Positions 1,609 to 52,918 of a DNA stretch of 52,918 nt are shown here, piece by piece. A model generated the notes under the pieces. That model ran no database searches, had not been told where the DNA came from, and was given only the letters and a program-made list of their open reading frames with translations. Within the stretch, counting starts at the first letter, position 1. Each line of letters starts with the position of its first letter. Source of the stretch: Patescibacteria group bacterium (GTDB lineage Bacteria > Patescibacteriota > Minisyncoccia > Phycocordibacterales > JACOZG01); the NCBI GenBank assembly GCA_038064935.1, contig JBBTRZ010000017.1:1-52918 (forward strand), given 5' to 3'. A program made the position numbers and the translations under genes.

Positions 1609-3770
1609 ACAAATTTTTGTCAGCGTATCATCCGCAAGATGAGGAGGGGGCGATTTATCAGAAATGGGAGGCCAGTGGCTTTTTTAATCCCGACAAATTA
1701 CCCGCCTCGTCGGCGGACGGGCCGCCGCGACATCGCAAACCCTTCACCATTATCATGCCACCGCCGAATGCCAATGGGTCGCTGCACGCCGGACACGCAC
1801 TCTTTATCACTCTTCAAGATATTATGATTCGTTTCGAACGGATGCGAGGCAAACGCGTTTTGTGGGTGCCCGGGGCTGATCACGCCGGGTTCGAGACCCA
1901 AGTGGTTTATGAGAAAAAGCTCGAGAAAGAAGGACGCTCGCGTTTTGGAATGGATCCCAAGGTTCTCTACAATGAAATTTATAATTTTACGATCGAGAAT
2001 AAGAAAAACATGGAGGGGCAAGTGCGCGCCCTCGGCGCGTCATGTGATTGGTCACGAGCGAGATTCACGCTTGACCCAGATATTGTGGCGGGGGTACAAA
2101 AAACTTTTATTAAAATGTTTGAGGACGGCCTCATCTACCGCGGTGAACGCCTCGTCAACTGGTGTCCCAAACATCAAACTTCCCTTTCGGATGTCGAAAC
2201 CGAGAGCGTCGAGGAAACAACGCCTTTCTATTATTTCCAGTACGGCCCTTTCGAGATCGGGACGGTTCGTCCCGAAACTAAGTTTGGCGATAAATATTTG
2301 GTCATGCATCCCGACGACGCGCGGTATCAAAAATATACTCACGGCGAGCAGCTTGAAGTGGAGTGGATTAATGGCCCCGTCACCACGACGATTATTAAAG
2401 ATCGGGCGATTGATCCAGCGTTCGGCACCGGCGTCATGACGATCACCCCGAGACATTCGGCGGTTGACTTTGAAATTGCGGCGCGCCACCACTTGGCCGG
2501 TGAGCAGATTATTGACTTACGGGGTAAACTTCTGCCTATCACTGGTGAATTCGCCGGACTCAAGATCACCGAGGCGAGACCGAAAATTGTGGAGAAACTC
2601 AAAGCCAAAGGACTCTTGGCGCGGGTGGATGAAAATTATACTAATGTCGTCAAACGATGTTACAAGTGTCAGACCGCGATCGAGCCGCAAGTGAAGGATC
2701 AATGGTTCGTGAGAATGGCCCCCCTTACCAAGTTGGCGCTTGAAGCAGTTGACGCCAAACAAGTCAGTTTCATCCCCGACAACTATGAAAAAGTTTTCTG
2801 TTATTTTCTGGAAAACACACACGATTGGAATATTTCTCGGCAAATAGTCTGGGGCATTCCCATCCCGGCTTGGGTCTGCAATGAATGTCACGAGGGAGTC
2901 GCGAGTAGCGAGAGTAAAATTCCACAATGTAAAAACTGCGGGCAAGAGATGCGTCGCGACCCGGACACCTTCGACACCTGGTTCTCGTCCGGGCAGTGGC
3001 CACTCTTGGTGCTTAATTATCCCGATGGGCCGGACTATCGGGCCTTTTACCCGACGAGTGTCATGGAAACAGGGCACGATCTCATTTTCCGCTGGGTGCC
3101 GCGGATGATTATTTTTGGCCTTTATCTAACGAAGCAAGTCCCCTTCCCCATCGTCTATCTTCACGGTCTAGTTAATGATGCCAAGGGGAAAAAAATGAGT
3201 AAGTCGAAGGGGAACGTCACCAACCCGCTTGACCTCACCGCGAAGTATGGCACCGACGCGCTCCGAATGGGACTTGTCGTCGGCAATCCACCCGGGGCCG
3301 ACCTCGCCTTGCGCGAAGATAAAATCAAGGGCTATAAATATTTCGCCAATAAAATTTGGAATGTCTCGCGGTTCGTTTTGGAAAATATTAAAAACGCCGA
3401 TCTGTCGAACGCGCCGAATCTACTTCCCGAACACCAAAAATATCTCGACCAGTTAAACGAAATCGTGAACGGAGTGACAAAGCAATCGGAAAACTGGCGT
3501 CTGGATCTTGCCGCTGATCAGATTTATCACTACTTCTGGCACTCGTTTGCCGATGTGATTATCGAGGAAACAAAAACAATTTTTAGACAAGCCGAGATTA
3601 ATCCGGAAGCCAAGAAATCAGCCGTGTGGTTACTCTACACTATTCTCGCGACTTCCCTCAAACTGCTTCACCCCTTCATGCCCTTCGTCACCGAAGCTGT
3701 CTGGGTCGAGCTTCCCGCTGGCGTCCATAAGCGGCAAGATCTGCTCTTGGTCGAGCCCTGGCCGCTTTAG
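1605..3770 (+). CDS. valS: Valine--tRNA ligase
   Basis: 721 aa with PPPNANGSLHAGHAL (HIGH-type motif), KMSKS, and the CP1 editing signature TVRPETKFGD. It lacks the C-terminal coiled coil of long ValRS. Its ATG overlaps the TGA of the toxin frame (ATGA). Confidence 0.95.
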   Translation: MNKFLSAYHPQDEEGAIYQKWEASGFFNPDKLPASSADGPPRHRKPFTIIMPPPNANGSLHAGHALFITLQDIMIRFERMRGKRVLWVPGADHAGFETQVVYEKKLEKEGRSRFGMDPKVLYNEIYNFTIENKKNMEGQVRALGASCDWSRARFTLDPDIVAGVQKTFIKMFEDGLIYRGERLVNWCPKHQTSLSDVETESVEETTPFYYFQYGPFEIGTVRPETKFGDKYLVMHPDDARYQKYTHGEQLEVEWINGPVTTTIIKDRAIDPAFGTGVMTITPRHSAVDFEIAARHHLAGEQIIDLRGKLLPITGEFAGLKITEARPKIVEKLKAKGLLARVDENYTNVVKRCYKCQTAIEPQVKDQWFVRMAPLTKLALEAVDAKQVSFIPDNYEKVFCYFLENTHDWNISRQIVWGIPIPAWVCNECHEGVASSESKIPQCKNCGQEMRRDPDTFDTWFSSGQWPLLVLNYPDGPDYRAFYPTSVMETGHDLIFRWVPRMIIFGLYLTKQVPFPIVYLHGLVNDAKGKKMSKSKGNVTNPLDLTAKYGTDALRMGLVVGNPPGADLALREDKIKGYKYFANKIWNVSRFVLENIKNADLSNAPNLLPEHQKYLDQLNEIVNGVTKQSENWRLDLAADQIYHYFWHSFADVIIEETKTIFRQAEINPEAKKSAVWLLYTILATSLKLLHPFMPFVTEAVWVELPAGVHKRQDLLLVEPWPL

Positions 3771-5948
3771 CGGTTCGGATATGGGTATCGGCGTTGATGC
3801 GCTAATTACTTCAAAAGGTAAAAAATTGCTCATGATGCCATTACTAGAAAAAATCGACACCTGATAAACTCCAGGTGGGGTCGGCAGAAGACAACCGCAT
3901 TCAGTACCTAAAATAATATCTGGAACACTGATGCTAATCACCTCATCGCTAGATGAAGCAACCCCAATACTGGTCAAGCCAATTTCATTATAAAAATTAA
4001 CGGTGCTGGCAAGAGCTAAACCTGAACCAAACAAGACGATCGGTTCACCCGGCGCCGCGGCGGGCGGGACGACCGATTCAAGGTGGGGCGGCGGGACGAC
4101 AGTGATTGATAAGGTTTCGACGGTCTTGAGATCGCTGTCGTTATTGATGGCGGTAATGGTAATCGGGTAAGTCATGAGCGTCGCCGCGGCCGGAATGGAA
4201 AAATTGAAACCGTTAAAAACCGATTCCTGGGGCGCAATTTCCTGATCGCCGATGGGTAAATTATTCTGCCAATCGTCGGGAAGCGCGACCGTCACAGTGA
4301 AATTGGCCGGCGAACAGCCGACGGAATCTTGGTTAATCAAATTGAAATAGACAAAGCCATTAGACCCCGGTGACAAAATAGGAAAGAAATTAAGGTTGGC
4401 AATCTGCGGCCGAGCGCGATCACAAGCACCTTCGGACAACTTAATATCAAAAGTAATCGTCGAAGTTGAGATCGCCGTCGGAGCGATTGAGACCCCTCGC
4501 GGAATATCGGAGAAAACGCTACCGATATTAACCGATGCCAGCTTACTGTCTGGATGCCAATCAGCGTTCGTCGGGAGCAGGTCAAGGAGACGAGTAGGAT
4601 TTTGCCCGACACCGCTTATTAAATTAATCAACAAACCTTGTTGATTAGAATTGACGCTCTGATCATTAAGAAAAGAATCGAACCCGAGTCCGCGCCGGTA
4701 CTCTAAATAAAAAGGGGTATTGTTTGAATTAAGCGGCTTAATCTTGGCAATTTTAGGGCCGCCAGTTTCTTCAAGCGCATTTAATTTATACCGCCCGGGA
4801 CGATTAATTAAAAGAATTTCTTCTGGCTTAAGCCAGCCTAATCGTTCTTTATAAAAAGCGTTGAAATGATTCGCGATAATTCCCCAGCCCATTACATCGA
4901 AATGATTGCCGTATTCCACCTGTTGGCAATTACCGGAAAGCGCGTAGAGCGATTGAGTTCCGCAATCCCAACCATTGGCGTGATATAAACCAAGTCCATG
5001 ACCAAACTCATGGGCGACAATGTAATCAAACCAAGTCCAAGAAAAATTCTGATTGGCCGGATCGCGCGGGTTATTCCAAATTGGAGACGCGCCAATATAA
5101 GCCAACGAAATATAAACATCGTGCCCACCAATGTTAAAAGTTCGTTTGCCAATAGTTGATTGGCCGCCCATAAAACAGGGTTGATTCAGCAAGACTACAT
5201 AACGGTCATATAATTCAGGTCGGAAATTATCTAAAATAAATTGATCGAGTTCGCCGCCGTTGCCAAGCGTCGGTAAAGGACAAGAATTGGCGTCACCACC
5301 AGCGCGCGGCAAGGTGAACCAACCGTAGGTCTTACCCGCGAGAGACACTCGACCGTATGATTGTTCACGATAGAAATTATTAATCTGGCTTTTGAAAATC
5401 CTTCTCTCTGCCTCTTCTTTGTCAAAGGGCGGAGCCGGCGAATCAGTAAAATCAACCATAATTACCGCCACCTTCTGCTCACCCAGAGTCGGTGGAGTCG
5501 GCGGCGGTTCAATTACTTGGATATTTCTGCTGGTCACCTCGGCCACCGCCAAATCACCTGAAACATAAGCTTGCTTAAGGTGAATTCGTGAACCAGATTC
5601 AAATGCCAAATTCCCCACGGGGTAAAAATCGTATTGCTTACCATCAACGCGCAGTTTGTAAGACAAACGAGCCTTAGCGGGGTTATCCCAGTCATCGTGT
5701 TGGGTCACTTCTAGCACCCCGATCAATTCCTCTTTCTCACCGGACAGAGCCCGAGACAGAAATAATTTAGGATTAGAAATAAGGAGTTCTCGAGAGGTGG
5801 CCAATGGAACACGCGAGGTCAAGTTAGATTGTTCCACTGGCCCGATGTCGGAAAAAGCTTGAGAAAATCCCAGTAAAATAATTAGCGCCAGCAACGAGAC
5901 AAAAAGTATCGGCTGTAATCTTCTATTAGTTTTCTGGTCTGTTTCCAT
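3630..5948 (-). CDS. Secreted or membrane-anchored zinc metalloprotease (HExxHxxGxxH) with C-terminal Ig-like modules
   Basis: 772 aa with an N-terminal hydrophobic anchor (ILFVSLLALIILLGF) and the motif HEFGHGLGLYH. The C-terminal half is beta-rich and ends in an IPT/TIG-like module (PGEPIVLFGSGL...GVYQVSIFSSNG). The last 141 nt overlap the 3' end of valS on the other strand. Confidence 0.75.
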   Translation of the reverse strand: METDQKTNRRLQPILFVSLLALIILLGFSQAFSDIGPVEQSNLTSRVPLATSRELLISNPKLFLSRALSGEKEELIGVLEVTQHDDWDNPAKARLSYKLRVDGKQYDFYPVGNLAFESGSRIHLKQAYVSGDLAVAEVTSRNIQVIEPPPTPPTLGEQKVAVIMVDFTDSPAPPFDKEEAERRIFKSQINNFYREQSYGRVSLAGKTYGWFTLPRAGGDANSCPLPTLGNGGELDQFILDNFRPELYDRYVVLLNQPCFMGGQSTIGKRTFNIGGHDVYISLAYIGASPIWNNPRDPANQNFSWTWFDYIVAHEFGHGLGLYHANGWDCGTQSLYALSGNCQQVEYGNHFDVMGWGIIANHFNAFYKERLGWLKPEEILLINRPGRYKLNALEETGGPKIAKIKPLNSNNTPFYLEYRRGLGFDSFLNDQSVNSNQQGLLINLISGVGQNPTRLLDLLPTNADWHPDSKLASVNIGSVFSDIPRGVSIAPTAISTSTITFDIKLSEGACDRARPQIANLNFFPILSPGSNGFVYFNLINQDSVGCSPANFTVTVALPDDWQNNLPIGDQEIAPQESVFNGFNFSIPAAATLMTYPITITAINNDSDLKTVETLSITVVPPPHLESVVPPAAAPGEPIVLFGSGLALASTVNFYNEIGLTSIGVASSSDEVISISVPDIILGTECGCLLPTPPGVYQVSIFSSNGIMSNFLPFEVISASTPIPISEPLKRPGLDQEQILPLMDASGKLDPDSFGDEGHEGVKQFEGSRENSVE

Positions 5949-6000: not shown

Positions 6001-7131
6001 TCAACCGGAATTTAATAAAAAATCCAAATAATTGTTTTTATGGATAAGAATAAGGGAGGTATTGGGATAATTTTTTAACCATAAAGGCGGCGGCGAGACG
6101 ATACTTCCTGACCATTTACATTCAATGGCCGAAAGAACCCCATTTGATTCTTTAATAATATCTATCTCCTGCCCAGTATGAGTGCGCCAAAAATAATAAG
6201 TGTCCAGCTGATTTTCAATGGCACTTTTCTTGATTAGTTCCATAAAAATAAAGTTTTCCCAAAGGGCCCCAAGATCATTGCGAAGATGAAGCGGGTTAAA
6301 TTGAGAAATGACGGCATTACGCACACCGTTGTCAAGAAAATAGTATTTAGCTTTTTTAGAAATTTCATTGCGCAAATTTCGACTAAATCCTCTGACTTTT
6401 TTAATAATAAACATTTTTTCAAGCAGGTCTACATACCGACCAACAGTTTTGACATCTGTCTTGACAGTTACGGAGATTTCATTTAGAGATACTTCATTCC
6501 CTGTTTGAAATGCTAGACATTTCAGGATATCCTTCAAGAGATCGGGGTAACGGATCGTCTCTAGTATTAGCACATCCTTAAACAGATAGGAGGATACTAC
6601 TTCGTTCAAGAGCTTGATTTTTCTTTGAGTATCAGGCTCACTCAAAATTTCCGGATATGAACCATAGAGAAGAAAATCTTCAAGATTGTTTTTTAGTTCA
6701 AACTCACCTCCTTCCATTTCCCCTTGAGACAGTGGCAAAAGGGTTAAGGTGAAATGGCGACCAGTCAATGGTTCGCCGATTTTATTAGAAAGATCAAGTG
6801 ATGATGAGCCGGTTAAAATGATATTTTTCTCTGGAAAAGCATCGATCATCATCTTCGCACCAATCCCAATGTTTGGAATATATTGAGCTTCGTCAAGAGC
6901 CACAATATCGTAGGGACGAGCAAAATCAAGAATTTCTTTCCGGAATTGAGGCTTAAAAATTTCATGCAATCGGGCATCATCCCCTGTCCCATAATACACT
7001 TCCTTTCCCGATATTCCTTTCAAATAGGCCTCAAGCATAGTGGTTTTGCCGATTCGTCTTGGGCCATAAACAAGTAAAACCCGCCTGGGTTCTAATTGGC
7101 TATTGATGTCCTGCTTCCTCTTAAATTTCAT
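6001..7131 (-). CDS. AAA-type ATPase of the AAA_14/DUF4143 (COG1373) family
   Basis: 376 aa with Walker A GPRRIGKT, Walker B ALDEAQ, and a C-terminal YYFLDNGVRNAVI region typical of DUF4143. The gene is AT-rich. Confidence 0.8.
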   Translation of the reverse strand: MKFKRKQDINSQLEPRRVLLVYGPRRIGKTTMLEAYLKGISGKEVYYGTGDDARLHEIFKPQFRKEILDFARPYDIVALDEAQYIPNIGIGAKMMIDAFPEKNIILTGSSSLDLSNKIGEPLTGRHFTLTLLPLSQGEMEGGEFELKNNLEDFLLYGSYPEILSEPDTQRKIKLLNEVVSSYLFKDVLILETIRYPDLLKDILKCLAFQTGNEVSLNEISVTVKTDVKTVGRYVDLLEKMFIIKKVRGFSRNLRNEISKKAKYYFLDNGVRNAVISQFNPLHLRNDLGALWENFIFMELIKKSAIENQLDTYYFWRTHTGQEIDIIKESNGVLSAIECKWSGSIVSPPPLWLKNYPNTSLILIHKNNYLDFLLNSG

Positions 7132-7232
7132 TAAATTTATGGTATACTAAACCATATATTAAGTCAAATTTGTGGTACTAATATGTTTTAAGCGACAAAA
7201 CCTATCGCTCATTGAACCCTGGCCGCTTTAAT

Positions 7233-8381
7233 TTATTTTTTCTCGCCTAAACTATAAGCCGTCCAGTGTTCGACTTCAAATATTGCCGGTTCAGAACCTA
7301 ATGGGGATATGAAGGCGCAAATATCCGCCGGGCATTCTTGCCCATCTTTCAAAATAATCGGTGAGTTAAATCTGCCCGCCAATCCATTTAATGTAATTTG
7401 GGCCTTTTTATTGAGGCCGGGGTTAGACACAGAATCCACTACGGCCAAATTATCGCTAACACTTATGGCCCGGCTCAAGCTCTTACCGGAGCCGCTAAGA
7501 GCTTCCAGGAATTTTATTTCTCCGGTAGAATTTCTCACCACCAATTTACCGCCCGGCCCATCAATCCGATACTTACCGATCAAGGGCATATTATTCAGAT
7601 AAACAATATGTTCAGGATCACCATGAAATCTAATATCATAAACCTCTGGATTATTATTTGTTATCACCACGCCATTTAGCGTATTCCCCATATCGCTTCC
7701 GTCAGAAGTCGCAATATCTAGCCCGTATTCTTGGGAATTTTTTACAAAACCGCCAGAAACAACATTACCGATACCACTTAAAATAATGCCGCTCCGACCA
7801 GAAGATATTTTATTATTTATCAGCTGATTATTTTGGGAAGTCCCGCCCAAAAAGAGACTATTGGGACTGGCCACCACGGTATTATTCTGAAAAATACTGT
7901 TAAAAGCTAAAGTCTCAATCCCCGAGGTCCCAGCCGAAAGGATGATGTTGTCTTTGATAATTCCATTGGTCACCCCCACTAAATCAATTCCCCATTCGGC
8001 TCCAACAATCGTTAAATTTTTGACAGTTATACTGCTTAAAAATTGAAGAAAGACACCGGTGTCATCCTCTCCATTTTCAAAAATTATACTATGACCATTT
8101 CCATCAAGAGTGACGCGGTCTGAGGCAATGGTAAAACAAACCCCATCATCAGTCGGGTGTAAATCCATTGTTAGGAGATACACGGCGTTTGGCACATCCA
8201 AAATGGCGCAACTATTTAACAGGATGGGTCTCGGGGCCGGTCTTTGGACGATTTGGGTATTAGAATAATTATTGTAGTTTGAGACGAAATCCGCCGAAGA
8301 AATAGCCACCACGGTCGTCGCCGCCATCCCCATAATCATAACAACCAACATATAAACAAAACTTCGATGGATATTATTCAT
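7233..8381 (-). CDS. Secreted right-handed parallel beta-helix repeat protein (NosD/pectate-lyase-like fold)
   Basis: 382 aa with an N-terminal signal anchor (MLVVMIMGMAATTVVAISS). It carries repeated about 22-aa beta-helix turns (ITVKNLTIVGAEWGIDLVGVTNGIIKDNIILSAGTSGIETLAFNSIFQNNTVV...). Confidence 0.7.
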   Translation of the reverse strand: MNNIHRSFVYMLVVMIMGMAATTVVAISSADFVSNYNNYSNTQIVQRPAPRPILLNSCAILDVPNAVYLLTMDLHPTDDGVCFTIASDRVTLDGNGHSIIFENGEDDTGVFLQFLSSITVKNLTIVGAEWGIDLVGVTNGIIKDNIILSAGTSGIETLAFNSIFQNNTVVASPNSLFLGGTSQNNQLINNKISSGRSGIILSGIGNVVSGGFVKNSQEYGLDIATSDGSDMGNTLNGVVITNNNPEVYDIRFHGDPEHIVYLNNMPLIGKYRIDGPGGKLVVRNSTGEIKFLEALSGSGKSLSRAISVSDNLAVVDSVSNPGLNKKAQITLNGLAGRFNSPIILKDGQECPADICAFISPLGSEPAIFEVEHWTAYSLGEKK

Positions 8382-11581: not shown

Positions 11582-12214
11582 TTAACACATTGATGGCGTC
11601 GAAGGACAAGAGTCAGGTCTTGTCCAGGTTTTTGATATATCGTCAGAATAGACACTTATTGAATTAGGGTAAGGAGGAGAAGGATTTGTATGATAATTGG
11701 AATCACGCATTGATTCAGGAACACCATTCATGTTTTCAACCGAACCAACAATTGTTAATTTGTAGCGCGTCCAACTTTCGTTTACTTTATACTTATAACC
11801 CCACCAAACTGTTTGTGATCCAGTAAATGATGATGCTTGGGGATCAGCCGGCCGTGGTTTCAAATAAAGTATTGGCGTTTCTAGGGACAAAAGTCTATTA
11901 GAATCCCAATTAGGTCCAGCATTAGTACAATCCCAACAACTAGTTCCCCCAGTAGAGTAATCTGGGTTTGGATCTGGCGGGTATAATCCATTGTGATCCA
12001 ACGCATATAACTCCAACGCGTTTCGGACTTGAATCAAATCCTGCACGCGTTTCGAATCGCGGGCTTTGGAACGGGCAGCGCCGAGCGAGGCGATGATGAT
12101 ACTTGATAAGAGTGAGATGATCGAGATGACAACGAGGAGTTCGATGAGAGTGAATCCCCTAATAGTTTTTAGTTTATAGATTCTAACTTTTAGGGAATTG
12201 ATTTTAATCGTCAT
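11582..12214 (-). CDS. Type IV pilin / pseudopilin-like protein with a prepilin N-terminal cleavage-methylation motif
   Basis: 210 aa with the motif KTIRG/FTLIELLVVISIISLLSSIIIA followed by a globular domain containing Cys pairs (SCWDC, SCPSTPSMC). Confidence 0.85.
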   Translation of the reverse strand: MTIKINSLKVRIYKLKTIRGFTLIELLVVISIISLLSSIIIASLGAARSKARDSKRVQDLIQVRNALELYALDHNGLYPPDPNPDYSTGGTSCWDCTNAGPNWDSNRLLSLETPILYLKPRPADPQASSFTGSQTVWWGYKYKVNESWTRYKLTIVGSVENMNGVPESMRDSNYHTNPSPPYPNSISVYSDDISKTWTRPDSCPSTPSMC

Positions 12215-26391: not shown

Positions 26392-27525
26392 TCATTTTAT
26401 AAATCGGAATGTGGAAAGAATTTTGTTCAGAATATTAAAATTGGCGCTATCACCATAAATATAAAAGGTTAGAAGACGAGTCTTTTCTTTATTCAACGGA
26501 ATCGTGTATTCCACACTCTCGATGCTACCACTTGGCAATAAGTCACGGTCAGGACTTTTGATAACTTCATTTTCGCCGATCATCACTTTAGAAAAACCTT
26601 TTTTCTTGAGACTGGCATTATCTTGTTCACCGATCCATTTGTTTTCATCATTGTACAAAATTGCAAGCTGAATTATGTTATAACCAGTTCTAGATTCTAA
26701 TGCTTGGTTTCCTTGGTTATCAACACCATAGAAGTCTTCTCCTTCTGGATAATTGCGCAATCTAGATACGCCGTCTCTTTCTAACTCCTGAGGTGCTTCA
26801 TTCCTATATTCCGGTGGATACTTAAACTCAAACCCATATTTATCATTCCGATAAGTTTTCCAGCCTTCTACCCCCTCCGAACCTCCCCCCAAGGGGGAGG
26901 TGTAAGTTCCCTCCCCTTCGGGGAGGGCGGAGGGTGGGGTTATGTTTTTCCCCTGCCACAGCCAATAGCCGCCGATGATGAGCAGGACCGGAAGAATAAT
27001 TAAAAAGATGCCGGATTTTGATTTAGGTGTGTCAACACTCGGTGTTGACGATGGCTCGGTTGGTGGTAGTACTTGGTTTGATTCTAAGTTTTGATCGTCC
27101 ATAATTATTATCTTATCATATACTCTTGGGTTTTCTTTCAAATCTTTGTATATGTCTAAAATGAAACCTAATAATGAAATTAATAGAGCTGGCGGGTTAA
27201 CATATCCTTTGAAAAAATCAAAGTTAGCAATATCTAAGAAACCAATGATGATTAACAGAAATAGTAAAGGTCCGTGTTCTGCCCAATAAACTCTTTTTCT
27301 GTTTATTTTTATTATTTTGAAATCTAAAAAAATTGTTTTTGCTGAAAGAACTATTATTATTATGAGCAGTATTGTCGGATATTTTAATTGAAAGTGAAAA
27401 ATTCCGTAAATTAGAATTAGATAGATGAATAACCATACCAAATAAACTTTTCTTACACGTTTCATTCCTGGAAAATTCATAAAGAGATGAGTAGTGATAT
27501 GGCTCAATGCTACCACACCCCACAT
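26392..27525 (-). CDS. Hypothetical membrane protein (AT-rich gene) carrying a GC-rich in-frame insert
   Basis: 377 aa with several N-terminal TM helices and a C-terminal soluble domain. I recognise no family. The start abuts the uvrB stop. Confidence 0.65.
   Translation of the reverse strand: MWGVVALSHITTHLFMNFPGMKRVRKVYLVWLFIYLILIYGIFHFQLKYPTILLIIIIVLSAKTIFLDFKIIKINRKRVYWAEHGPLLFLLIIIGFLDIANFDFFKGYVNPPALLISLLGFILDIYKDLKENPRVYDKIIIMDDQNLESNQVLPPTEPSSTPSVDTPKSKSGIFLIILPVLLIIGGYWLWQGKNITPPSALPEGEGTYTSPLGGGSEGVEGWKTYRNDKYGFEFKYPPEYRNEAPQELERDGVSRLRNYPEGEDFYGVDNQGNQALESRTGYNIIQLAILYNDENKWIGEQDNASLKKKGFSKVMIGENEVIKSPDRDLLPSGSIESVEYTIPLNKEKTRLLTFYIYGDSANFNILNKILSTFRFIK
26870..26940. repeat. 71-nt GC-rich three-hairpin element, copy 1 (inside a CDS, in frame)
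   Basis: Plus strand: ACCCCCTCCG AA CCTCCCCC-CAA-GGGGGAGG TGTAAGTT CCCTCCCC-TTC-GGGGAGGG CGGAGGGTGGGGT. This gives two perfect 8-bp hairpins enclosed by an outer stem. It aligns to the reverse complement of 28255-28325. Confidence 0.75.
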
Positions 27526-29628
<2,103 letters not shown>

Positions 29629-40751: not shown

Positions 40752-41303
40752 CTAATTAGAAATCACGGTTTCTTTTTTCGCCCTGATCTCTTCCAAAGTA
40801 GCGTTACTTTTATCAACAATTTTTTGCAGTTCATCTTTGGCCCGGAATTTATCATCCTCGGCCACGGTCCCCGCGCGTTCGGCTTCTTGCACCGTACTCC
40901 AAATCTTGTCTCGAGTCTGACGCACCGAAACTCGCGCCTCTTCAAATTTCGCATTAACCACTTTTATAAGGCGCTCTCGGCTCTCGGTCGTAAGCTCGGG
41001 GAAGGTTACGCGGATGCCCGTCTGATCACCCGATATCGAGAGACCAAGATTCTCGGCGGTGATGGCGCTTTCGACCTCCTTCATCTGCGCCTTATCCCAC
41101 GGTGTGATCCGGAGTGTCCGGGCATCCTCAATCGTTACCGCCGCCACTTGCTTGAGCGGCAATTTCGCCCCATAAGAATTCACCTCGACTCGATCAAGTA
41201 AGAATGGTGTCGCCCGCCCGGTCCGCACACTGTGATATTCAGTCTTCAACCATTCCTCAATCTCCTTCAGCTTCGCTTTCGTCAAATTAAAATCGTAGAT
41301 CAT
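40752..41303 (-). CDS. frr: Ribosome recycling factor
   Basis: 183 aa with the typical RRF pattern (RTGRATPFLLDRVEVNSYG...ITPWD...NLGLSISGDQTGIRVTFPELTTESR). Confidence 0.95.
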   Translation of the reverse strand: MIYDFNLTKAKLKEIEEWLKTEYHSVRTGRATPFLLDRVEVNSYGAKLPLKQVAAVTIEDARTLRITPWDKAQMKEVESAITAENLGLSISGDQTGIRVTFPELTTESRERLIKVVNAKFEEARVSVRQTRDKIWSTVQEAERAGTVAEDDKFRAKDELQKIVDKSNATLEEIRAKKETVISN

Positions 41304-41328
41304 AGTTATTTTTGGTGGTCGTAATTAT

Positions 41329-41676
41329 TTAGGGTCTAAGTAGTGGATCTGTCAATATACTAGGATTATCCATGATTCGAGCTCGTGATACCGTTTGTAA
41401 TTGATAAAGTGAAAAAATAACTATAAAAGCAACTACTATGAATAATAGAATCGTTTTAGTTAATTTTTCTTTGTCCCCTATTTCAGCAACTTTGATAAAC
41501 TTTTTACTAGCCCACCATATCCAACAAACTATGGCCGTTAATATAACAAACACACCTAATAATTCTGAAAAACTAAATACAACTGAGAAATTGAGGAATA
41601 ATAACAGGGCGATTAAAATTGAGAAAATAATGACTATTGGCCTTATTATCTTTAAAAATTTAGTTGAGGGATTCAT
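41329..41676 (-). CDS. Hypothetical small membrane protein (AT-rich islet)
   Basis: 115 aa with three hydrophobic helices. I recognise no family. Confidence 0.55.
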   Translation of the reverse strand: MNPSTKFLKIIRPIVIIFSILIALLLFLNFSVVFSFSELLGVFVILTAIVCWIWWASKKFIKVAEIGDKEKLTKTILLFIVVAFIVIFSLYQLQTVSRARIMDNPSILTDPLLRP

Positions 41677-41757
41677 ATTTTAAAATATTAATTAATAATC
41701 TTCTACTTATATTTATTTATACGGTGTCTATTCTACCATTCTACCACAAACAAACAT

Positions 41758-42042
41758 TCAACGATTCCACCGTTGTTGAAAATTTACATAAACTTTTGAG
41801 CGGTGGCCGGCCGCTACAATATTAATCAAGTGTTCTTTTTGTTTAATTTCGTACAAAACCCGATAATCCCCAACCTGTAACTTGAATACTCCAGCTAGAG
41901 TATAGCTCAAAGGAATGGGTGTAATGTTAGGAAAATTTTCCTCTACCCAAGCTAGTTTGGTTAACACCCTTTCATTAACGGCTCGATCAAGATGAAGTAA
42001 ATCATCTTCGGCTTCTGGTTCAAAATTAATTTGCCAAGACAT
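41758..42042 (-). CDS. RelE/ParE-family type II toxin (intact)
   Basis: 94 aa, ending ...FKLQVGDYRVLYEIKQKEHLINIVAAGHRSKVY. It overlaps the upstream antitoxin stop by 1 nt. Confidence 0.85.
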   Translation of the reverse strand: MSWQINFEPEAEDDLLHLDRAVNERVLTKLAWVEENFPNITPIPLSYTLAGVFKLQVGDYRVLYEIKQKEHLINIVAAGHRSKVYVNFQQRWNR

Positions 42043-47126: not shown

Positions 47127-47650
47127 GGCGGACTAACTAGGGAAGTGAGTTCAGTCTTCACCCGCTCGTAATCGGGAAGGTTGGTTAATTCTCTCACGCC
47201 GAGCCAGCCGAGCAGTTCGAAGGTCGGTCGGTAAAGGAAGCTCCGGGAATCGGTCGGATTCGGAATTTTATCCACCAGACCGCGGACCAATAAATTCCGC
47301 AGGATGAAACTCGAGTTAACGCCGCGGATATAGTCAATCTCGGCCCTAGACACCTCGCCCCGATAGAGCACCACGGTCAAGGTTTCAAGGCCGGCCCGCC
47401 CAAGATCGCGCGCTAATTCCTCTTTAGTCAATCGCTCGATGAGGGTACCGGCAGCCGGGACAGTCCCAAGCATCACGGCATCACCAGTTCGCACGAGAGT
47501 GAGGCCGCGATCAACCAATCGAGCAGAGAGCGTTTCCAATCCTTGAATAATCTCGGCTTCGCTCTGCGCGAAAGACCGCGCCAAGTCGGCGACCGTCGTT
47601 GGGGCCGCCTGCCAAAAAAGTATGGCTTCAATTTGCGCCGCTAAATCCAT
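47123..47650 (-). CDS. scpB: Segregation and condensation protein B
   Basis: 175 aa with EAILFWQAAPTTVADLA and two winged-helix repeats. Confidence 0.88.
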   Translation of the reverse strand: MDLAAQIEAILFWQAAPTTVADLARSFAQSEAEIIQGLETLSARLVDRGLTLVRTGDAVMLGTVPAAGTLIERLTKEELARDLGRAGLETLTVVLYRGEVSRAEIDYIRGVNSSFILRNLLVRGLVDKIPNPTDSRSFLYRPTFELLGWLGVRELTNLPDYERVKTELTSLVSPP

Positions 47651-47689
47651 AATACTAGTGGGATAAATTATAACCTTAAAGACGACTAA

Positions 47690-48451
47690 TTAGCCATAGC
47701 GCGGGGTCTTCGAATCTTTAGTCTCAATTCTAATCTCCGCGAAGTGCTCGGATTGAATGACGGTCACTAGACCCTGCTTGAAGAGTTCGAGGAGAGCGAG
47801 GAAACTCACAATCACATTCACTTTCTCGCGTTTATCTTTAACGAAATCACTGAAGCTCATGGTGAGCGCCGACTGGATGCGGCGCGTGAGATCGCCAATC
47901 ACCTGCTCAATACTCACTAGGCGCTTGACCGTCTTCTCGGGCAGAACTTCGAGCTGGGGCAAATCGCGGAGAAGTCGCTGCATCGTTACTTGGACGCCCG
48001 GCAAAGTGATCTCGGCGGTCGGCGAGAAGACGGGATTAAGTACTCTCGCCCGCGGATCGCGATAGAAAATCGGCGTCTCGGCGAGCGCCGCCTTGAGAAG
48101 CGGCAGGGTGTCCTTCACCACTTGATAGAGCTTGAGGCGGCGTTCAAGATCGCTAATTTCACCCTGCTCTTCGTCGGTCACCGCAAGCGTCGGGAGAAGC
48201 GAGACCGACTTGATGAGAATTAAGGTCGAAGCGACGACCACAAAGTTGCCGAGGATGGCCATCCCCGCTTGCCCGTCCGATCGGCGAGATCCTGGCAACT
48301 TTCTCAAATATTCGAGGAAACTATCCGCGACCGCAGCGAGCGACACTTGATTGATCCCCAACTCCCTCGCCTCGACCAACTCGAGCAATACCTCCAGTGG
48401 CCCCTCAAACTCCCCCACCTTGACTGCAAAAATATCAACCACCATAGTCAC
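47690..48451 (-). CDS. scpA: Segregation and condensation protein A
   Basis: 253 aa with FEGPLEVLLELVE, ILIKSVSLLP, and the C-terminal block VSFLALLELFKQG. Confidence 0.88.
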   Translation of the reverse strand: MTMVVDIFAVKVGEFEGPLEVLLELVEARELGINQVSLAAVADSFLEYLRKLPGSRRSDGQAGMAILGNFVVVASTLILIKSVSLLPTLAVTDEEQGEISDLERRLKLYQVVKDTLPLLKAALAETPIFYRDPRARVLNPVFSPTAEITLPGVQVTMQRLLRDLPQLEVLPEKTVKRLVSIEQVIGDLTRRIQSALTMSFSDFVKDKREKVNVIVSFLALLELFKQGLVTVIQSEHFAEIRIETKDSKTPRYG

Positions 48452-48484
48452 TAAATCTTACTCGACTTGACACCCAGCCGATAC

Positions 48485-48513
48485 TTGACAAGAATACAGT
48501 TTGGGTGTACAAT
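48485..48513 (+). promoter_or_regulatory. Near-consensus sigma70 promoter (TTGACA, 17 nt, TACAAT) of the plus-strand cassette
   Basis: TTGACA at 48485-48490, a 17-nt spacer, and TACAAT at 48508-48513. A second TTGACA lies 18 nt upstream. Confidence 0.6.
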
Positions 48514-48581
48514 CAAGAGTAGGAGGTAGCGTTGTGTTTTTGATTGACAATTTGCGTTGTTTAACAGAAAGGGAGGTGTCT

Positions 48582-49028
48582 ATGTCGCATTTAGGAGTTG
48601 GCTATACCGGGCACCTCTTTGAAGAAGAAGTGCTGGGAACGGGTTGGGCTAGTTGGGATCTTAGGAATTATGTCCCGTTTGATGAGGCCCTAACATTGGT
48701 TAGGAGTCACCAAAACTGGAATCCGAGTGATCCAACTACTCGTCGAGCCAACGATCTCCATGCTGAAGTGGCCTTAGCCCTCGAGCTCGAGAATTGGCAA
48801 GAGCTTTGTTTTTTCTCCGCTCTCAAGTCACCGTTGGATTTTTTCCACGGGGTAGATGGATTCTTCGAATTTCGTGGTCGGGTAGTGACGATTGATTTGA
48901 CCACGAATCCCCACAAGGACCGGGCCAAAGCACGCTTCGTTCTCCACCCGGCTGATTTGGCAGAAGACCGACCGGCGACGGCGAAAATGATCGCCCGGGC
49001 TCTATTAGCCGAGAGGAGGAGCGCTTGA
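48582..49028 (+). CDS. Hypothetical protein (cassette gene 1)
   Basis: 148 aa from ATG 48582, preceded by GGGAGGTG 5 nt upstream. An alternative in-frame GTG at 48534 is preceded by AGGAGG at 48521-48526. I recognise no family. Confidence 0.6.
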   Translation: MSHLGVGYTGHLFEEEVLGTGWASWDLRNYVPFDEALTLVRSHQNWNPSDPTTRRANDLHAEVALALELENWQELCFFSALKSPLDFFHGVDGFFEFRGRVVTIDLTTNPHKDRAKARFVLHPADLAEDRPATAKMIARALLAERRSA

Positions 49029-49243
49029 GTTACTTCTTCTCCTGCAATAGTTGTGGTAAATACCGAGTGGTGAAAGAAACTTTTTTTAACTTCCTTCCAC
49101 CCCACCTTCATCGTAAAATTGAGGCGGAAAATCAGAAGGAGGGAAGGAAAAAGTTCACCATTGTATTTCGCAAGGCCTGTCCTCGTTGTGAACCAAAGGG
49201 TAAAAGTGAGTTCGTCTTGAAGATTAGGAGGTACAAACAATAA
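49025..49243 (+). CDS. Small zinc-ribbon protein (CxxC...CxxC), cassette gene 2
   Basis: 72 aa with a TTG start overlapping the gene-1 stop (TTGA) and AGGAGG 5 nt upstream. The Cys pairs are CNSC and CPRC; the C-terminus is basic. Confidence 0.55.
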   Translation: MSYFFSCNSCGKYRVVKETFFNFLPPHLHRKIEAENQKEGRKKFTIVFRKACPRCEPKGKSEFVLKIRRYKQ

Positions 49244-49365
49244 GAGTTTGGGAGGGTCTCTAAAACCTCCCCTGATACTCAAGTGTGTACTTGGGCTGAC
49301 GATCTCAAAAGAGTGAAATCAGAAATTGATCTTTAAAAAACTAAAATCTGAAAGGAGTATTTATC

Positions 49366-49794
49366 GTGACACTTATGACCGTCCAACTCACGATTACGCC
49401 CAGTCGATATATGGATCATGCACTTACTGCATCATGGCGAGTGCCACACATCCCAACACTGGGTAGTCAAGTAGCAATGGTTTGGAATGGTGGAGAAGGT
49501 AAACCGAACGCCATTCATTTGCCAGTGATTAGCGTGATCTACTACGCCTTCTCTGACCTGTCTCAACCAGTTTCGCCTCGAGATCTCGATGAACCGAGTG
49601 GATTCAAGGTACAAGTTTATCTCGATGGCCACTCTCTTGAACCAGAAGACGAGGATCTTATTTTTGGCACTGGTAACACCCTTGGTTTAGGACCTTGGAG
49701 AGAAATTCCGAAAAAGGATTTCACGCGACCACCTGAATCGAGAATTTCGAGAGCCACTAAGAAGCGTATGTATTCCCCTATCAAAAGCACCTGA
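49366..49794 (+). CDS. Hypothetical protein (cassette gene 3)
   Basis: 142 aa from GTG 49366 with AAGGAG 8 nt upstream (ATG 49375 is an alternative). I recognise no family. Confidence 0.6.
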   Translation: MTLMTVQLTITPSRYMDHALTASWRVPHIPTLGSQVAMVWNGGEGKPNAIHLPVISVIYYAFSDLSQPVSPRDLDEPSGFKVQVYLDGHSLEPEDEDLIFGTGNTLGLGPWREIPKKDFTRPPESRISRATKKRMYSPIKST

Positions 49795-49837
49795 AAAACA
49801 GCGATGATCGGTCGTCAATGATCTTCATACGCTGACA

Positions 49838-49878
49838 AAGCGCAGTGGCCTTCCGGCTTCTGCGCTTTTTCTTTTTTG
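49838..49878 (+). terminator. Rho-independent terminator of the cassette
   Basis: AAGCGCAG, a 14-nt loop, CTGCGCTT, followed by TTTCTTTTTTG. Confidence 0.7.
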
Positions 49879-50022
49879 CGACCCGTACCAACTAACTGCT
49901 ATCGCTACTACTTGGAACATTCAAATTACTAATTTAGGAAATAATTTTTATTTTTAATTCTTTGAGTTGGTCGGGGGTGGCGGGAGCGAATAGAAATAAG
50001 GGGATTTTAGAAGTTCAATGAA

Positions 50023-50877
50023 TCACTTAAACAACTCCTTAAACTCCGGAGATGATTCAGCCACTTCTTTCCAGAGAGAATATTCGGAGCCGTTCCATTT
50101 GAAAATCTTGGCGATCTTTTTTCCTTCAGACTGTTCATAGCCGACAATGATATCTTGAATTTTATCGGCATCAATGTCTTTCATGAAAGTCAGTTCAGCA
50201 GAACCGACAAGTTCAGTTAGAAGATAAGTGTCTGTCGAATCTTTTTGAAGCGGCGAAATGCGCTTGAATGTATTTCCTACAAATTTATAAATATAAAAGG
50301 CATTGGTTCTGCCTGTAACACTTAGATCACCTTCCCAAACAATCTCATCAACTTCGTCGTTGTTAATATCTTCAAAACGCGGCTTGCCATTATTATTCGT
50401 TTCTTCTTTACTCTCCCAAAACAATGTGGGTCGATTACCAAGCAATTTAAACACCATGAACCCCGCTGGTTTATACGGATGATTTTCATCTTGGAATTTT
50501 TCCTCTCCATACCAAGATAAAGTGTAAATATCGCCGTTTATCTTTGTCTCTGGTAATCCACTTAACATATCATTTTGAATGACTGGACTATAGATAAACA
50601 TTATTATTGTGACCCACACTATTCCTAAAATAACATTTGAAAGTTGTATCAGCCAGTAATATTTATGTTTTTCATTAACATCCCAAAACACCCATTCCCA
50701 AAACTTATAAACAATATGGCCAAATATTCCGAAAGCAAAAGTTATCAAACCATAATAAATATAATAATCATTATAAGCTAAACTGAAAACTGCAAAAGCC
50801 CCACCCATAAGTGAGACATTGAGATGCCAAGTAAGATTGTGGAGGATTGTACTGATAAAAGCAATGAATTCAGCCAT
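50023..50877 (-). CDS. Membrane-anchored protein with FG-GAP/VCBS-like DxDxD loops (paralogue 1)
   Basis: 284 aa with four N-terminal TM helices. It has DINNDEVDEIVW and DIDADKIQDIIVGY and ends FKWNGSEYSLWKE. The gene is AT-rich. Confidence 0.65.
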   Translation of the reverse strand: MAEFIAFISTILHNLTWHLNVSLMGGAFAVFSLAYNDYYIYYGLITFAFGIFGHIVYKFWEWVFWDVNEKHKYYWLIQLSNVILGIVWVTIIMFIYSPVIQNDMLSGLPETKINGDIYTLSWYGEEKFQDENHPYKPAGFMVFKLLGNRPTLFWESKEETNNNGKPRFEDINNDEVDEIVWEGDLSVTGRTNAFYIYKFVGNTFKRISPLQKDSTDTYLLTELVGSAELTFMKDIDADKIQDIIVGYEQSEGKKIAKIFKWNGSEYSLWKEVAESSPEFKELFK

Positions 50878-50963
50878 TTTTTCTGTTATTAGACGATATT
50901 AGATTTATATGGCAACAAAAGCAAGCTGACTAGAATTTAAAAGTGTTAATAATTTTCTGGTGG

Positions 50964-51806
50964 TTATAAAATATTTATCACAGAATATTCATCCTCCCAT
51001 TCTCTGGGAGTAAATGATTGTTTCTGTTCTTTCCAAAGATAGTATTCGGAGCCGTTCCATTTGTAGGCCTGATAAACTTTCTTACTAATTACATCCAGTC
51101 TATTTTCTGCAAGTCCAAGAATAATATTATAAGGTTGAACGATCTCTGGAATACCGTCTTTATCTACATCAAAAATTTTTGTCATGCTTTCTTCTCCACC
51201 GAAGGCAAGTTCTTTGGAAATAATACCATCAGGTCGTTTATGATCGTAATAAGCACTAATCATATTAAACCCAACGCCATTCCACTTATAAATATATAAA
51301 GCTTCGCCCTGGTCGTTATCCCATAGAGCAAGAATTTCATTTGTTTTATCACCAGTTACATCATACATACCAACTTTTACCCTCGGATCAGAAATATGCT
51401 CCTTGCTCTCCCAGATAAGATCAATCTGACCTGATTCTCGATCTTTAAAGACTAAAATTCCTTGTTGTTGTCTTCGGATAGCTACATCATCTGATTGAAT
51501 ATTTTTAAGGTTAATTTGGTAATAAGTAATGATGAGATCTTTCTGTCCACCATTAGTTAAAGAAAATCTTCGATAATCTTTCCCTTTTGTGTTAAGTACA
51601 TGATCAATCCGAATTTGTCTATCCATTAGTCCACTCGCGTCAAATTCTCTCACCGTAGGGGTCGAGGTCGTGGTTGATGTTACTGTCTGGTGGTCTTGCT
51701 GTTTGTTCGGATTTTGTTTTTTAGAATCAGATAAAAAATTAATAGCCACAACTAAAATTATTAGTATTCCTAAAAACACAACGATTTTAATTATATTTTT
51801 TGACAT
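50964..51806 (-). CDS. Signal-anchored protein with FG-GAP/VCBS-like DxDxD loops (paralogue 2)
   Basis: 280 aa with one N-terminal TM helix. It has YDVTGDKTNEILALW and FDVDKDGIPEIVQPY and ends YKWNGSEYYLWKE. It is collinear with 50023..50877. Confidence 0.65.
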   Translation of the reverse strand: MSKNIIKIVVFLGILIILVVAINFLSDSKKQNPNKQQDHQTVTSTTTSTPTVREFDASGLMDRQIRIDHVLNTKGKDYRRFSLTNGGQKDLIITYYQINLKNIQSDDVAIRRQQQGILVFKDRESGQIDLIWESKEHISDPRVKVGMYDVTGDKTNEILALWDNDQGEALYIYKWNGVGFNMISAYYDHKRPDGIISKELAFGGEESMTKIFDVDKDGIPEIVQPYNIILGLAENRLDVISKKVYQAYKWNGSEYYLWKEQKQSFTPREWEDEYSVINIL

Positions 51807-51812
51807 AATATT

Positions 51813-52918
51813 TTATTCAATAATCTCTTTGAAAATTCCGTTTCCATTGTTCCATTTAAGAATTACGGCATCTGCATAATTTTCAGCTCCTCGTCCAACA
51901 CCATTATACTTTCTTAACGCTGTCCACCAATCATGGCCATTTTCATCATATTGTAACTTTAAATATCCGGCTCCCACCTTAATGCTAAAATCCGGATCAA
52001 ACAATTGAGTAACGGGGACTGCATCCTGGGGTCGTTCATCTGGATGATTGGCAGAGCGTTTTTTCTCAAGATTTAATCTAACCATTCTTGTGAGAGCTGT
52101 CTCATACATAGCCTGTAATACTCCATAACTTGAAGCCACAACAAGTTGGGCGGTAAAATTCCAATTTTCACCCGGATCCTTGTATCGAATCCACACTCGG
52201 TCAGGATTTTTATTTAATAATTCTTGGGCTGTAAGATTTCCATCTGTATCCCCACTTGTGTCCAAACCATTAGGATACCCACTCATGTGCCTACTCCATC
52301 CAAAATAAACATCCTGGGATGGAAGTTGATCCCCCTGTTCTACTGTGCCATGAAGAGCGGTACCGCCAATCGCAATGTGTCTGTCAGGATGCCTTTTTAT
52401 TCGACTAGATGCATCAGTAGTCGAAGCTGAATACCAATCATAATCCTTGTGGGCCTCGTAACGATAAGCACGCTGGTCGAAAATCCTCCCTTGATCAGGA
52501 GATCCATCTACACAACAAGATTCCTGAAGGGCCATTGATTTTAGAAGATCCGGCGGGATGCCGTATTGTTTACCGTATTTGAAAAATAGATGATCGAAGC
52601 CGGGGAATCGTCGGCCTAATTTTCTTTCCTTAATCCGAATCTGCACGGTGGCGGTGGTCAAATAACCGGATTGAAGAATATTGATTCCAGTTCTCGCATT
52701 GGTGGTGCGGAGCCACAAATCTTCAGTCCAATCAATGCCGAAAAATTGCTCGTGATATTTAGCGATCCAGTGAATACGATCGCCCTTGATGTGAATTGAA
52801 TCGGGCAGTGGCGAAACTATCTCAGCCGTAAGTCCAGGCACATGCGCCAAGGTTCTAAAGAAGTTCCTCAACCCATTCGGCCAACTTTCCACCACCGTGT
52901 AGCCACCGTTCAAACCTT
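51813..52918 (-). CDS. Lytic transglycosylase (SLT-domain)-like protein, 5' end outside the window
   Basis: The frame is open to the window edge (the first in-window start is TTG at 52913). It has IPPDLLKSMALQESC (catalytic Glu-Ser) and AGYLKLQY...ALRKYNGVG. Confidence 0.6.
   Translation of the reverse strand, partial: GLNGGYTVVESWPNGLRNFFRTLAHVPGLTAEIVSPLPDSIHIKGDRIHWIAKYHEQFFGIDWTEDLWLRTTNARTGINILQSGYLTTATVQIRIKERKLGRRFPGFDHLFFKYGKQYGIPPDLLKSMALQESCCVDGSPDQGRIFDQRAYRYEAHKDYDWYSASTTDASSRIKRHPDRHIAIGGTALHGTVEQGDQLPSQDVYFGWSRHMSGYPNGLDTSGDTDGNLTAQELLNKNPDRVWIRYKDPGENWNFTAQLVVASSYGVLQAMYETALTRMVRLNLEKKRSANHPDERPQDAVPVTQLFDPDFSIKVGAGYLKLQYDENGHDWWTALRKYNGVGRGAENYADAVILKWNNGNGIFKEIIE

Follow-up and report, generated by a model that had tools for sequence, protein, structure and literature searches.

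We analyzed a plus-strand unit at positions 48485–49878 of a 52,918-nucleotide (nt) contig from a Patescibacteria group bacterium (JBBTRZ010000017.1; the window means this whole stretch). The unit carries three open reading frames (ORFs) behind a promoter of its own, and a previous reading made from the letters alone (the sequence-only reading) had taken it for a three-gene cassette of foreign or specially regulated character. Our best explanation, in which our confidence stands about evenly balanced, is that ORF1 and ORF2 form a native two-gene operon of the Patescibacteria (Candidate Phyla Radiation, CPR) that encodes two subunits of one protein machine, and that ORF3 is an orphan added downstream. 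ORF1 defines a family, still without a name, of alpha/beta enzyme-like proteins that is found almost only in Patescibacteria, and at most loci a gene for a zinc-ribbon protein such as ORF2 directly follows the ORF1 homologue. The elements of the unit, with the Shine-Dalgarno (SD) site of each ORF, are as follows.

48467–48495, plus strand: upstream secondary promoter-like site, TTGACA-17-AAGAAT, 10 of 12 positions matched
48485–48513, plus strand: main sigma-70-type promoter, TTGACA-17-TACAAT (-35 at 48485, -10 at 48513), 11 of 12 positions matched
48520–48581, plus strand: 5′ leader of about 60 nt from a predicted start, containing a third TTGACA (48546) and the SD of ORF1
48582–49028, plus strand: ORF1, ATG to TGA, 148 amino acids (aa), SD GGGAGGTG
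49025–49243, plus strand: ORF2, TTG to TAA, 72 aa, CxxC...CxxC, SD AGGAGG, TTGA overlap onto ORF1
49250–49271, plus strand: GGGAGG-10 nt-CCTCCC hairpin with no T-run
49366–49794, plus strand: ORF3 from GTG, 142 aa, SD AAGGAG; the alternative ATG at 49375 gives 139 aa
49837–49877, plus strand: intrinsic terminator, stem AAAGCGCAG..CTGCGCTTT with an inner GGCC/GGCT helix, then TTTTTCTTTTTT

The pairing of ORF1 with ORF2 emerges from the relatives of ORF1. A word-indexed search with ORF1 returned 33 close homologues, and an exhaustive profile search gave a family of 1137 clusters (50% identity, E <= 0.001), and 648 of these reach E <= 1e-10. Of the 19 genome hits with a title, 17 belong to Patescibacteria, to uncultured CPR, or to an unassigned bacterium, and the other two are weak and carry Proteobacteria labels; the lineages represented include Kaiserbacteria, Buchananbacteria, and Falkowbacteria. 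The word-indexed search with ORF2 found nothing because this protein is too short and divergent, and its relatives were recovered as the downstream neighbors of ORF1 homologues. At about 17 of 22 distinct loci, a CxxC...CxxC gene lies directly 3′ of the ORF1 homologue, with either a 4-bp overlap or a short gap, and in L001, L004, L008, and L010 the gene in this position is recognizable as a relative of ORF2. BLAST links 13 of the partner genes to one another, and distant ORF1 subfamilies also have a Cys4 partner. Besides this partner, no neighbor is conserved across the 22 loci. In one lineage the two proteins are naturally fused (P0067, 213 aa, L031 4001–4642; present in two assemblies, perhaps from one sample), and across 14 loci the pairwise identities of ORF1 and ORF2 co-diverge with a Mantel r of 0.60 that none of 5000 permutations reached. 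From the linkage, the fusion, and the co-divergence, we conclude that ORF1 and ORF2 are stable partners that very probably interact physically, and their functional coupling is supported.

The partner proteins share a clear pattern of cysteines. Among 13 partners, C7, C52, and C55 are invariant and C10 is kept in at least 90%, with the same pattern in distant partners, and between the two knuckles they conserve an insert, helical and about 25 residues long (T..F..FL.P.L...L). ORF2 is basic, with an isoelectric point of about 10 and a net charge of +11.6. This charge, on a zinc ribbon, would suit nucleic-acid binding, which is the most likely role of ORF2. Library scans of the 13 partners produced scattered single hits and no model at its cut-off, with sub-threshold matches to zinc-ribbon models in 2–4 of them.

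The expression signals of the unit are real and, to judge from the relatives, belong to the operon. TTGACA-17-TACAAT is the top-scoring site in a promoter scan of 47600–50600, with the -35 and -10 hexamers and 17-nt spacer of a sigma-70 promoter from which a transcription start is predicted. The SD sites of ORF1 (GGGAGGTG, 48571–48578), ORF2 (AGGAGG, 49014–49019), and ORF3 (AAGGAG, 49352–49357) have a core of 6–7 nt in all three cases, in contrast to the 39 other long ORFs of the window, where a core of at least 5 nt precedes 3 and a core of at least 6 nt precedes 1. At a background of no more than 3/39, three SD-bearing ORFs in a row would have a chance of about 5e-4 (our own arithmetic). The genome is thus SD-poor, and the unit is supported as an autonomous, specially signaled transcription unit. 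ORF1 homologues in L001, L004, L008, L010–L013, L019, and L021 are likewise preceded by a TTGACA-17-TAnnnT promoter, a leader of 50–80 nt, and a strong SD, and in L001, L004, and L010 the flanking housekeeping genes have no SD, as in the window, with a -10-like box just before the ATG of several of them. Because the same layout recurs in related genomes whose neighboring genes also lack SD sites, promoter, leader, and SD are a conserved property of the ORF1–ORF2 operon and no mark of recent import. In the window, a TATAAT-like box ends 7–9 nt before the start codon of five minus-strand genes (starts at 12214, 22438, 31186, 36521, and 38550), a small peak that suggests leaderless mRNAs in this genome and is made up of too few genes for a firm claim. 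The simplest reading is that the lineage translates many genes without an SD and that a long-leader mRNA such as this one needs it, so the step from different signals to foreign origin fails.

On the sequence itself, the sequence-only reading was accurate: all of the features that it described are present, with small coordinate offsets. The consensus-like promoter, the 72-aa zinc ribbon coupled through a TTGA overlap, and the strong SD before each ORF in contrast to the window genes were found as it had them, and its suggestion of a specially regulated unit agrees with the autonomous promoter, SD sites, and terminator. ORF1 has the length and SD that it gave, with the start one base away, and the hairpin between genes 2 and 3 exists two bases from where it had been placed. 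Its clean terminator is a GC-rich stem with a U-tract (-23.5 kcal/mol, z = -3.6, 0 of 200 shuffles as good, T5CT6 tail), which our simple terminator scan missed owing to an 8-nt loop limit. The placement of a plus-strand unit after a long minus-strand gene run also agrees with the ORF map: long ORFs occupy the minus strand from 3630 to 48451 and resume on it at 50023, so the unit is an islet between minus-strand ORFs.

The third gene behaves differently from the first two. Among 5.8 billion proteins, ORF3 has no homologue except itself, its relatives are absent from all of the 20-plus related loci, and the genes found 3′ of the pair in L004 and L031 are unrelated both to ORF3 and to each other. 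ORF3 is probably coding, because its frame scores best of the six; its GC content at third codon positions (GC3) is lower, at 0.41. By these comparisons ORF3 is a lineage-specific orphan outside the conserved module. The three-gene unit that had been proposed thus holds for the ORF1–ORF2 coupling and not for ORF3, since the pair is kept at most of the related loci and the trio occurs in no other genome, the very outcome that the sequence-only reading had named as its refutation. In relatives, a strong stem followed by a T-run terminates transcription immediately 3′ of the zinc-ribbon gene, and the terminator at this position in L010 (5675–5720, stem CTGGGAGGT/ACCTCCCAG plus T7) has the same GGGAGG/CCTCCC core as the window hairpin. 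The latter is unexceptional in stability (-14.8 kcal/mol, z = -1.85, equaled by 9 of 200 shuffles). Since it shares the position and core of the relatives' terminators and lacks the T-run, we read it as probably a decayed or leaky terminator. A local promoter scan showed no promoter-like site between this hairpin and ORF3, so ORF3 would probably be expressed by read-through that ends at 49837–49877.

Neither ORF1, ORF2, nor ORF3 gave a hit above threshold in Pfam, PADLOC, PHROGs, or NCBIfam, so the earlier view that the three proteins lie outside known families stands, and profile searches placed none of them in any described family. Pfam and NCBIfam scans of 64 ORF1-family members gave no match beyond scattered single hits and none to a PD-(D/E)xK clan profile, and the literature that we searched contained no description of the ORF1–ORF2 family. 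Some longer family members have N-terminal extensions that resemble miscalled starts, and we rejected extra N-terminal domains for that reason. In the alignment of 33 ORF1 sequences, G10, E14, Q44, L59, D86, D92, T103, D105, T107, and K112 are invariant and H89, N109, and K116 nearly so. ORF1 looks like a soluble, mildly acidic alpha/beta protein. Its structure model (predicted local distance difference test, pLDDT, 88.6; predicted template-modeling score, pTM, 0.84) opens with three helices and a strand, continues with a short helix and a beta-hairpin, and ends in a fourth strand and a C-terminal helix; the same domain within the model of P0067 has a pLDDT of 94–98. Helix 1 carries E14, the short helix carries D86 and H89, and D92 opens hairpin strand 1; T103, D105, and T107 are on hairpin strand 2, and N109, K112, and K116 occupy the loop after it. 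In the model, the invariant polar residues (E14, Q44, D86, D92, T103, D105, T107, and K112, with the near-invariant H89) look like a metal-dependent active site.

We ran Foldseek with the ORF1 model against PDB and BFVD and with the P0067 fusion model against PDB. About 20 of the top 50 PDB matches of the ORF1 model, and many of its BFVD matches, are PD-(D/E)xK nucleases, including Hjc, Can2, R2 endonuclease, MGME1, Cas4, VRR-NUC, and restriction enzymes, none of them significant (E 0.1–7, with 0.3–7 for Hjc, Can2, R2, MGME1, Cas4, and VRR-NUC; TM 0.2–0.35). Our guess for the chemistry is that ORF1 may be a nuclease or phosphoesterase, much diverged, with DNA or RNA as its substrate, a view that has about a third of our confidence and serves as a lead, short of a result.

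Put together, the operon would work as follows. A strong sigma-70 promoter would produce an mRNA with a leader of about 60 nt, which would need an SD, unlike the mostly SD-less and partly leaderless mRNAs nearby, and the TTGA overlap would couple translation of ORF2 to that of ORF1. The zinc ribbon of ORF2 would bind ORF1 and most likely supply nucleic-acid binding, while ORF1 would be the catalytic subunit with DNA or RNA as its substrate, the nuclease or phosphoesterase assignment being a guess. The terminator that relatives have after the zinc-ribbon gene would have decayed here to a hairpin without a U-tract, and transcription would read through it into ORF3 and stop at the terminator beyond.

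Several observations weigh against this account. Although the ORF1 model is confident, none of the three Foldseek runs found a neighbor with E < 0.1 (best E 0.53 in PDB and 0.12 in BFVD, TM about 0.2–0.35), and most of the nuclease enrichment is gone with the fusion model against PDB, which drew weak PAS, GAF, and SH2-like matches instead. The ORF1 profile against PDB sequences gave one irrelevant match (E = 0.6), and hhalign against Escherichia coli YraN gave no similarity (probability 0.2%). E14, D92, and D105 never vary, but a threonine stands where the (D/E)xK motif would have its lysine (D105-L-T107), with the invariant K112 five residues on, and the beta-alpha-beta-beta-beta order of the model fits the PD-(D/E)xK core (alpha-beta-beta-beta-alpha-beta) only loosely. 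PD-(D/E)xK variants with a relocated lysine exist, so a missing motif lysine leaves the fold possible. Confidence is low in the zinc-ribbon part of the fusion model (pLDDT 56–75), and the ORF1–ORF2 interface is not readable from it. As for the native character of the operon, the module sits at a different place in each relative, even in those with 66–68% identity, and ORF1 paralogues stand in tandem in L016 (two copies, 3113–4432) and L025 (three copies, 3536–5900), an arrangement that suggests accessory rather than core genes. The module may therefore be mobile or accessory.

ORF1 could instead act on small molecules, as an enzyme of nucleotide or cofactor salvage for instance, or serve as an adaptor without catalytic activity, with ORF2 as its regulator or scaffold; the missing significant similarity to any nuclease in sequence or structure, the non-canonical motif, the PAS, GAF, and SH2-like matches of the fusion model, and the dependence of Patescibacteria on salvage (PMC6744442) all speak for it. 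We consider this function unlikely, because a strongly basic zinc-ribbon partner suggests a polyanionic ligand, the invariant Asp/Glu/Lys cluster is typical of metal-dependent phosphoryl transfer, and the weak matches of the first ORF1 model are mainly nucleases. Somewhat less likely still is a type II toxin–antitoxin or addiction module, in which ORF1 would be a nuclease-like toxin and the coupled zinc-ribbon protein its antitoxin and autorepressor. The sequence-only reading had raised this idea, and the gene arrangement alone favors it: two small adjacent genes overlap by 4 bp (TTGA) between one promoter and a terminator of their own, with co-transcription predicted, and the genomic location differs from relative to relative. 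Tandem paralogues and one relative lying beside a PemK pair point the same way, and zinc-binding antitoxins such as MqsA exist. Against it, no toxin, antitoxin, or defense model matched across the 64 family members, and library scans found neither homology to known toxin or antitoxin families nor a DNA-binding antitoxin domain, ORF2 having none recognizable beyond the ribbon. A natural toxin–antitoxin fusion like P0067 would be unusual, the hits come almost all from one phylum and none from phage, plasmid, or viral collections, whereas such families usually cross phyla, and the neighbors are housekeeping genes rather than islands.

Origin can be judged in the same way. A recently acquired three-gene cassette, derived from a phage or plasmid or serving against phages, would account for the way in which its SD sites stand out in the window, for the position of the unit at a compositional boundary, where GC falls to 0.38 from about 49,900 and FG-GAP-like and SLT genes follow, and for the orphan ORF3 with its lower GC3. 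However, neither ORF1 nor ORF3 had a tblastn match in 50,697 phage records or in 72,556 plasmid records, and no relative turned up when IMG/VR viral contigs were scanned with the ORF1 profile. In PADLOC, none of the three proteins had a hit, and the 64 ORF1-family members had three single hits, E 0.003 or worse; PHROGs gave no recurrent hit for these members, the best for the cassette being ORF2 with a family of unknown function (E = 0.0065). GC and codon use of ORF1 are host-like (GC 0.523 against 0.496 for the window; codon score 0.22, within the range of the window genes), related genomes with SD-less neighbors have the same promoter, leader, and SD layout, and the trio is found nowhere else. 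At about 20 related loci the neighbors are housekeeping genes rather than defense or mobile islands, among them ThrRS, RNase Y, RNase III, RNase R, SMC, S16, prfB, Mur ligases, RuvA, and PilB. Thus the phage- or plasmid-derived origin and the defense module that had been suggested both find no support in these searches; for ORF1–ORF2 the foreign cassette is already largely refuted, and we regard it as extremely improbable. It is also very unlikely that ORF3 is a true third component that makes the cassette three-part in this lineage. Such a role would agree with its strand, its strong SD, the lack of a promoter-like site just before it, the only strong terminator, which it shares, and its best-scoring frame, but it is opposed by the absence of any homologue in the collections searched, by the relatives that terminate directly after the zinc-ribbon gene, and by the unrelated genes found after the pair at other loci. 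A recent addition, if there is one, would be ORF3 together with the low-GC segment beyond it rather than ORF1–ORF2.

That segment, in which GC drops from about 0.50 to 0.38, extends from about 49,900 to 52918 and runs off the end of the window. Its genes are as follows.

50023–50877 and 50964–51806, minus strand: two paralogous genes for FG-GAP-like putative membrane proteins
51813–52913, minus strand: SLT-domain transglycosylase gene

The segment may have been acquired. Further low-GC patches (0.38–0.41) occur at 6001–8000, 27001–28000, and 41001–42000, so the composition of the window is heterogeneous well beyond the cassette. The unit also has housekeeping neighbors in the window itself, namely scpA, scpB, a D-Ala-D-Ala carboxypeptidase gene (dacA-like), mraY, murG, and frr. 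A 191-aa antisense ORF on the minus strand (48707–49282) overlaps ORF1 and ORF2; its coding score, about 0.02 where ORF1 has 0.22, marks it as a shadow of the conserved frame on the sense strand, and similar antisense ORFs recur at related loci.

At the related loci, the closest relatives have no shared synteny: the Mur ligases next to the module in L001 and L033 are only 23% identical and thus paralogous. Isolated exceptions to the housekeeping neighborhood are a PemK toxin pair directly upstream of the module in L033 (4079–4658) and a Csx3-like gene upstream in L009 (4529–4840). In L016, only the first of the two ORF1 copies is followed by a zinc ribbon. SD-less housekeeping genes stand against SD-led hypothetical genes in L001, L004, and L010, the same contrast as in the window, and the L009 lineage uses SD sites everywhere. 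Around the promoter, TTGACA occurs three times (48467, 48485, and 48546), the first two copies lying within direct ACTTGACA repeats 18 nt apart, and the leaders of the window and L001 have GATTGACAA(T)TT in common; the triple TTGACA and the shared motif could represent an operator or promoters in tandem. Folding of the leader is not significant (z = -0.8), and an Rfam scan of 48300–50100 gave nothing near threshold.

Patescibacteria account for a large part of bacterial diversity, and many of the genes that they conserve have no explained role. The ORF1–ORF2 operon delimits a two-protein module that is present in many lineages with no entry in Pfam, NCBIfam, PADLOC, or PHROGs and no significant structural neighbor, and gives it testable features in the form of putative catalytic residues, a partner at most loci, and a natural fusion. 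In this way, one well-delimited "dark" family and its partner subunit are added. Were ORF1 a nuclease or another nucleic-acid enzyme, it could fill an apparent gap in the reduced repair and RNA-processing inventories of Patescibacteria. A bolder and doubtful proposition is that ORF1 founds a new enzyme family, with either a new fold or an over-divergent PD-(D/E)xK derivative, that is confined to Patescibacteria, has an obligate zinc-ribbon subunit and a core nucleic-acid role, and belongs to an SD-led class of genes. In that case, ORF1–ORF2 would carry out core repair, recombination, or RNA processing that different proteins perform in other bacteria, and SD-led expression would mark a distinct translational class in SD-poor, partly leaderless genomes. 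The signals also carry a warning, in that a strong SD and a consensus promoter are no evidence of foreign origin in an SD-poor genome.

Among known systems, MqsR/MqsA-type toxin–antitoxin pairs resemble ORF1–ORF2 in having two small overlapping genes, the larger first and a Cys4 protein second, under an autonomous promoter and at variable genomic locations. Unlike these, ORF1 and ORF2 have no homology to toxin or antitoxin models, ORF2 has no helix-turn-helix (HTH) domain, the two are fused in one lineage, and the hits of ORF1 come nearly all from one phylum and from none of the mobile-element collections. Generic small zinc-ribbon proteins (Pfam Zn_ribbon_3, Zn_ribbon_IS1595, and HVO_2753-like) share with ORF2 two CxxC knuckles about 45 residues apart, but ORF2 differs from them in its conserved helical insert between the knuckles (about 25 residues) and in its linkage to ORF1 at most loci, and no such model reached its cut-off. 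A survey of CPR genomes (Meheust et al. 2019, PMC6744442) reported 106 families enriched in CPR, among which 20 are enriched in Parcubacteria and are "primarily hypothetical proteins". The ORF1 family is similarly poorly annotated and almost restricted to CPR. ORF1 and ORF2 could not be assigned to a family of that survey, the accessions being absent from the supplements examined, and whereas the reported families are mostly membrane- or pilus-linked, ORF1 and ORF2 look by sequence like soluble cytoplasmic proteins.

Another comparison for ORF1 is with the PD-(D/E)xK (restriction-endonuclease-like) nucleases such as the archaeal resolvase Hjc and VRR-NUC. Like them, ORF1 is small, at about 140 aa, and has an alpha/beta fold; its first helix contains an invariant Glu, an invariant Asp opens one beta-strand, and the next strand of the hairpin has another invariant Asp. 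Members of this group recur among the weak Foldseek matches of its model. It differs from them in having no significant structure or profile match, in the exchange of the motif lysine for Thr (D105-L-T107) with the invariant K112 further on, in the two extra helices before the sheet and the helix with D86 and H89 between strands 1 and 2, and in its near-constant, separate zinc-ribbon partner.

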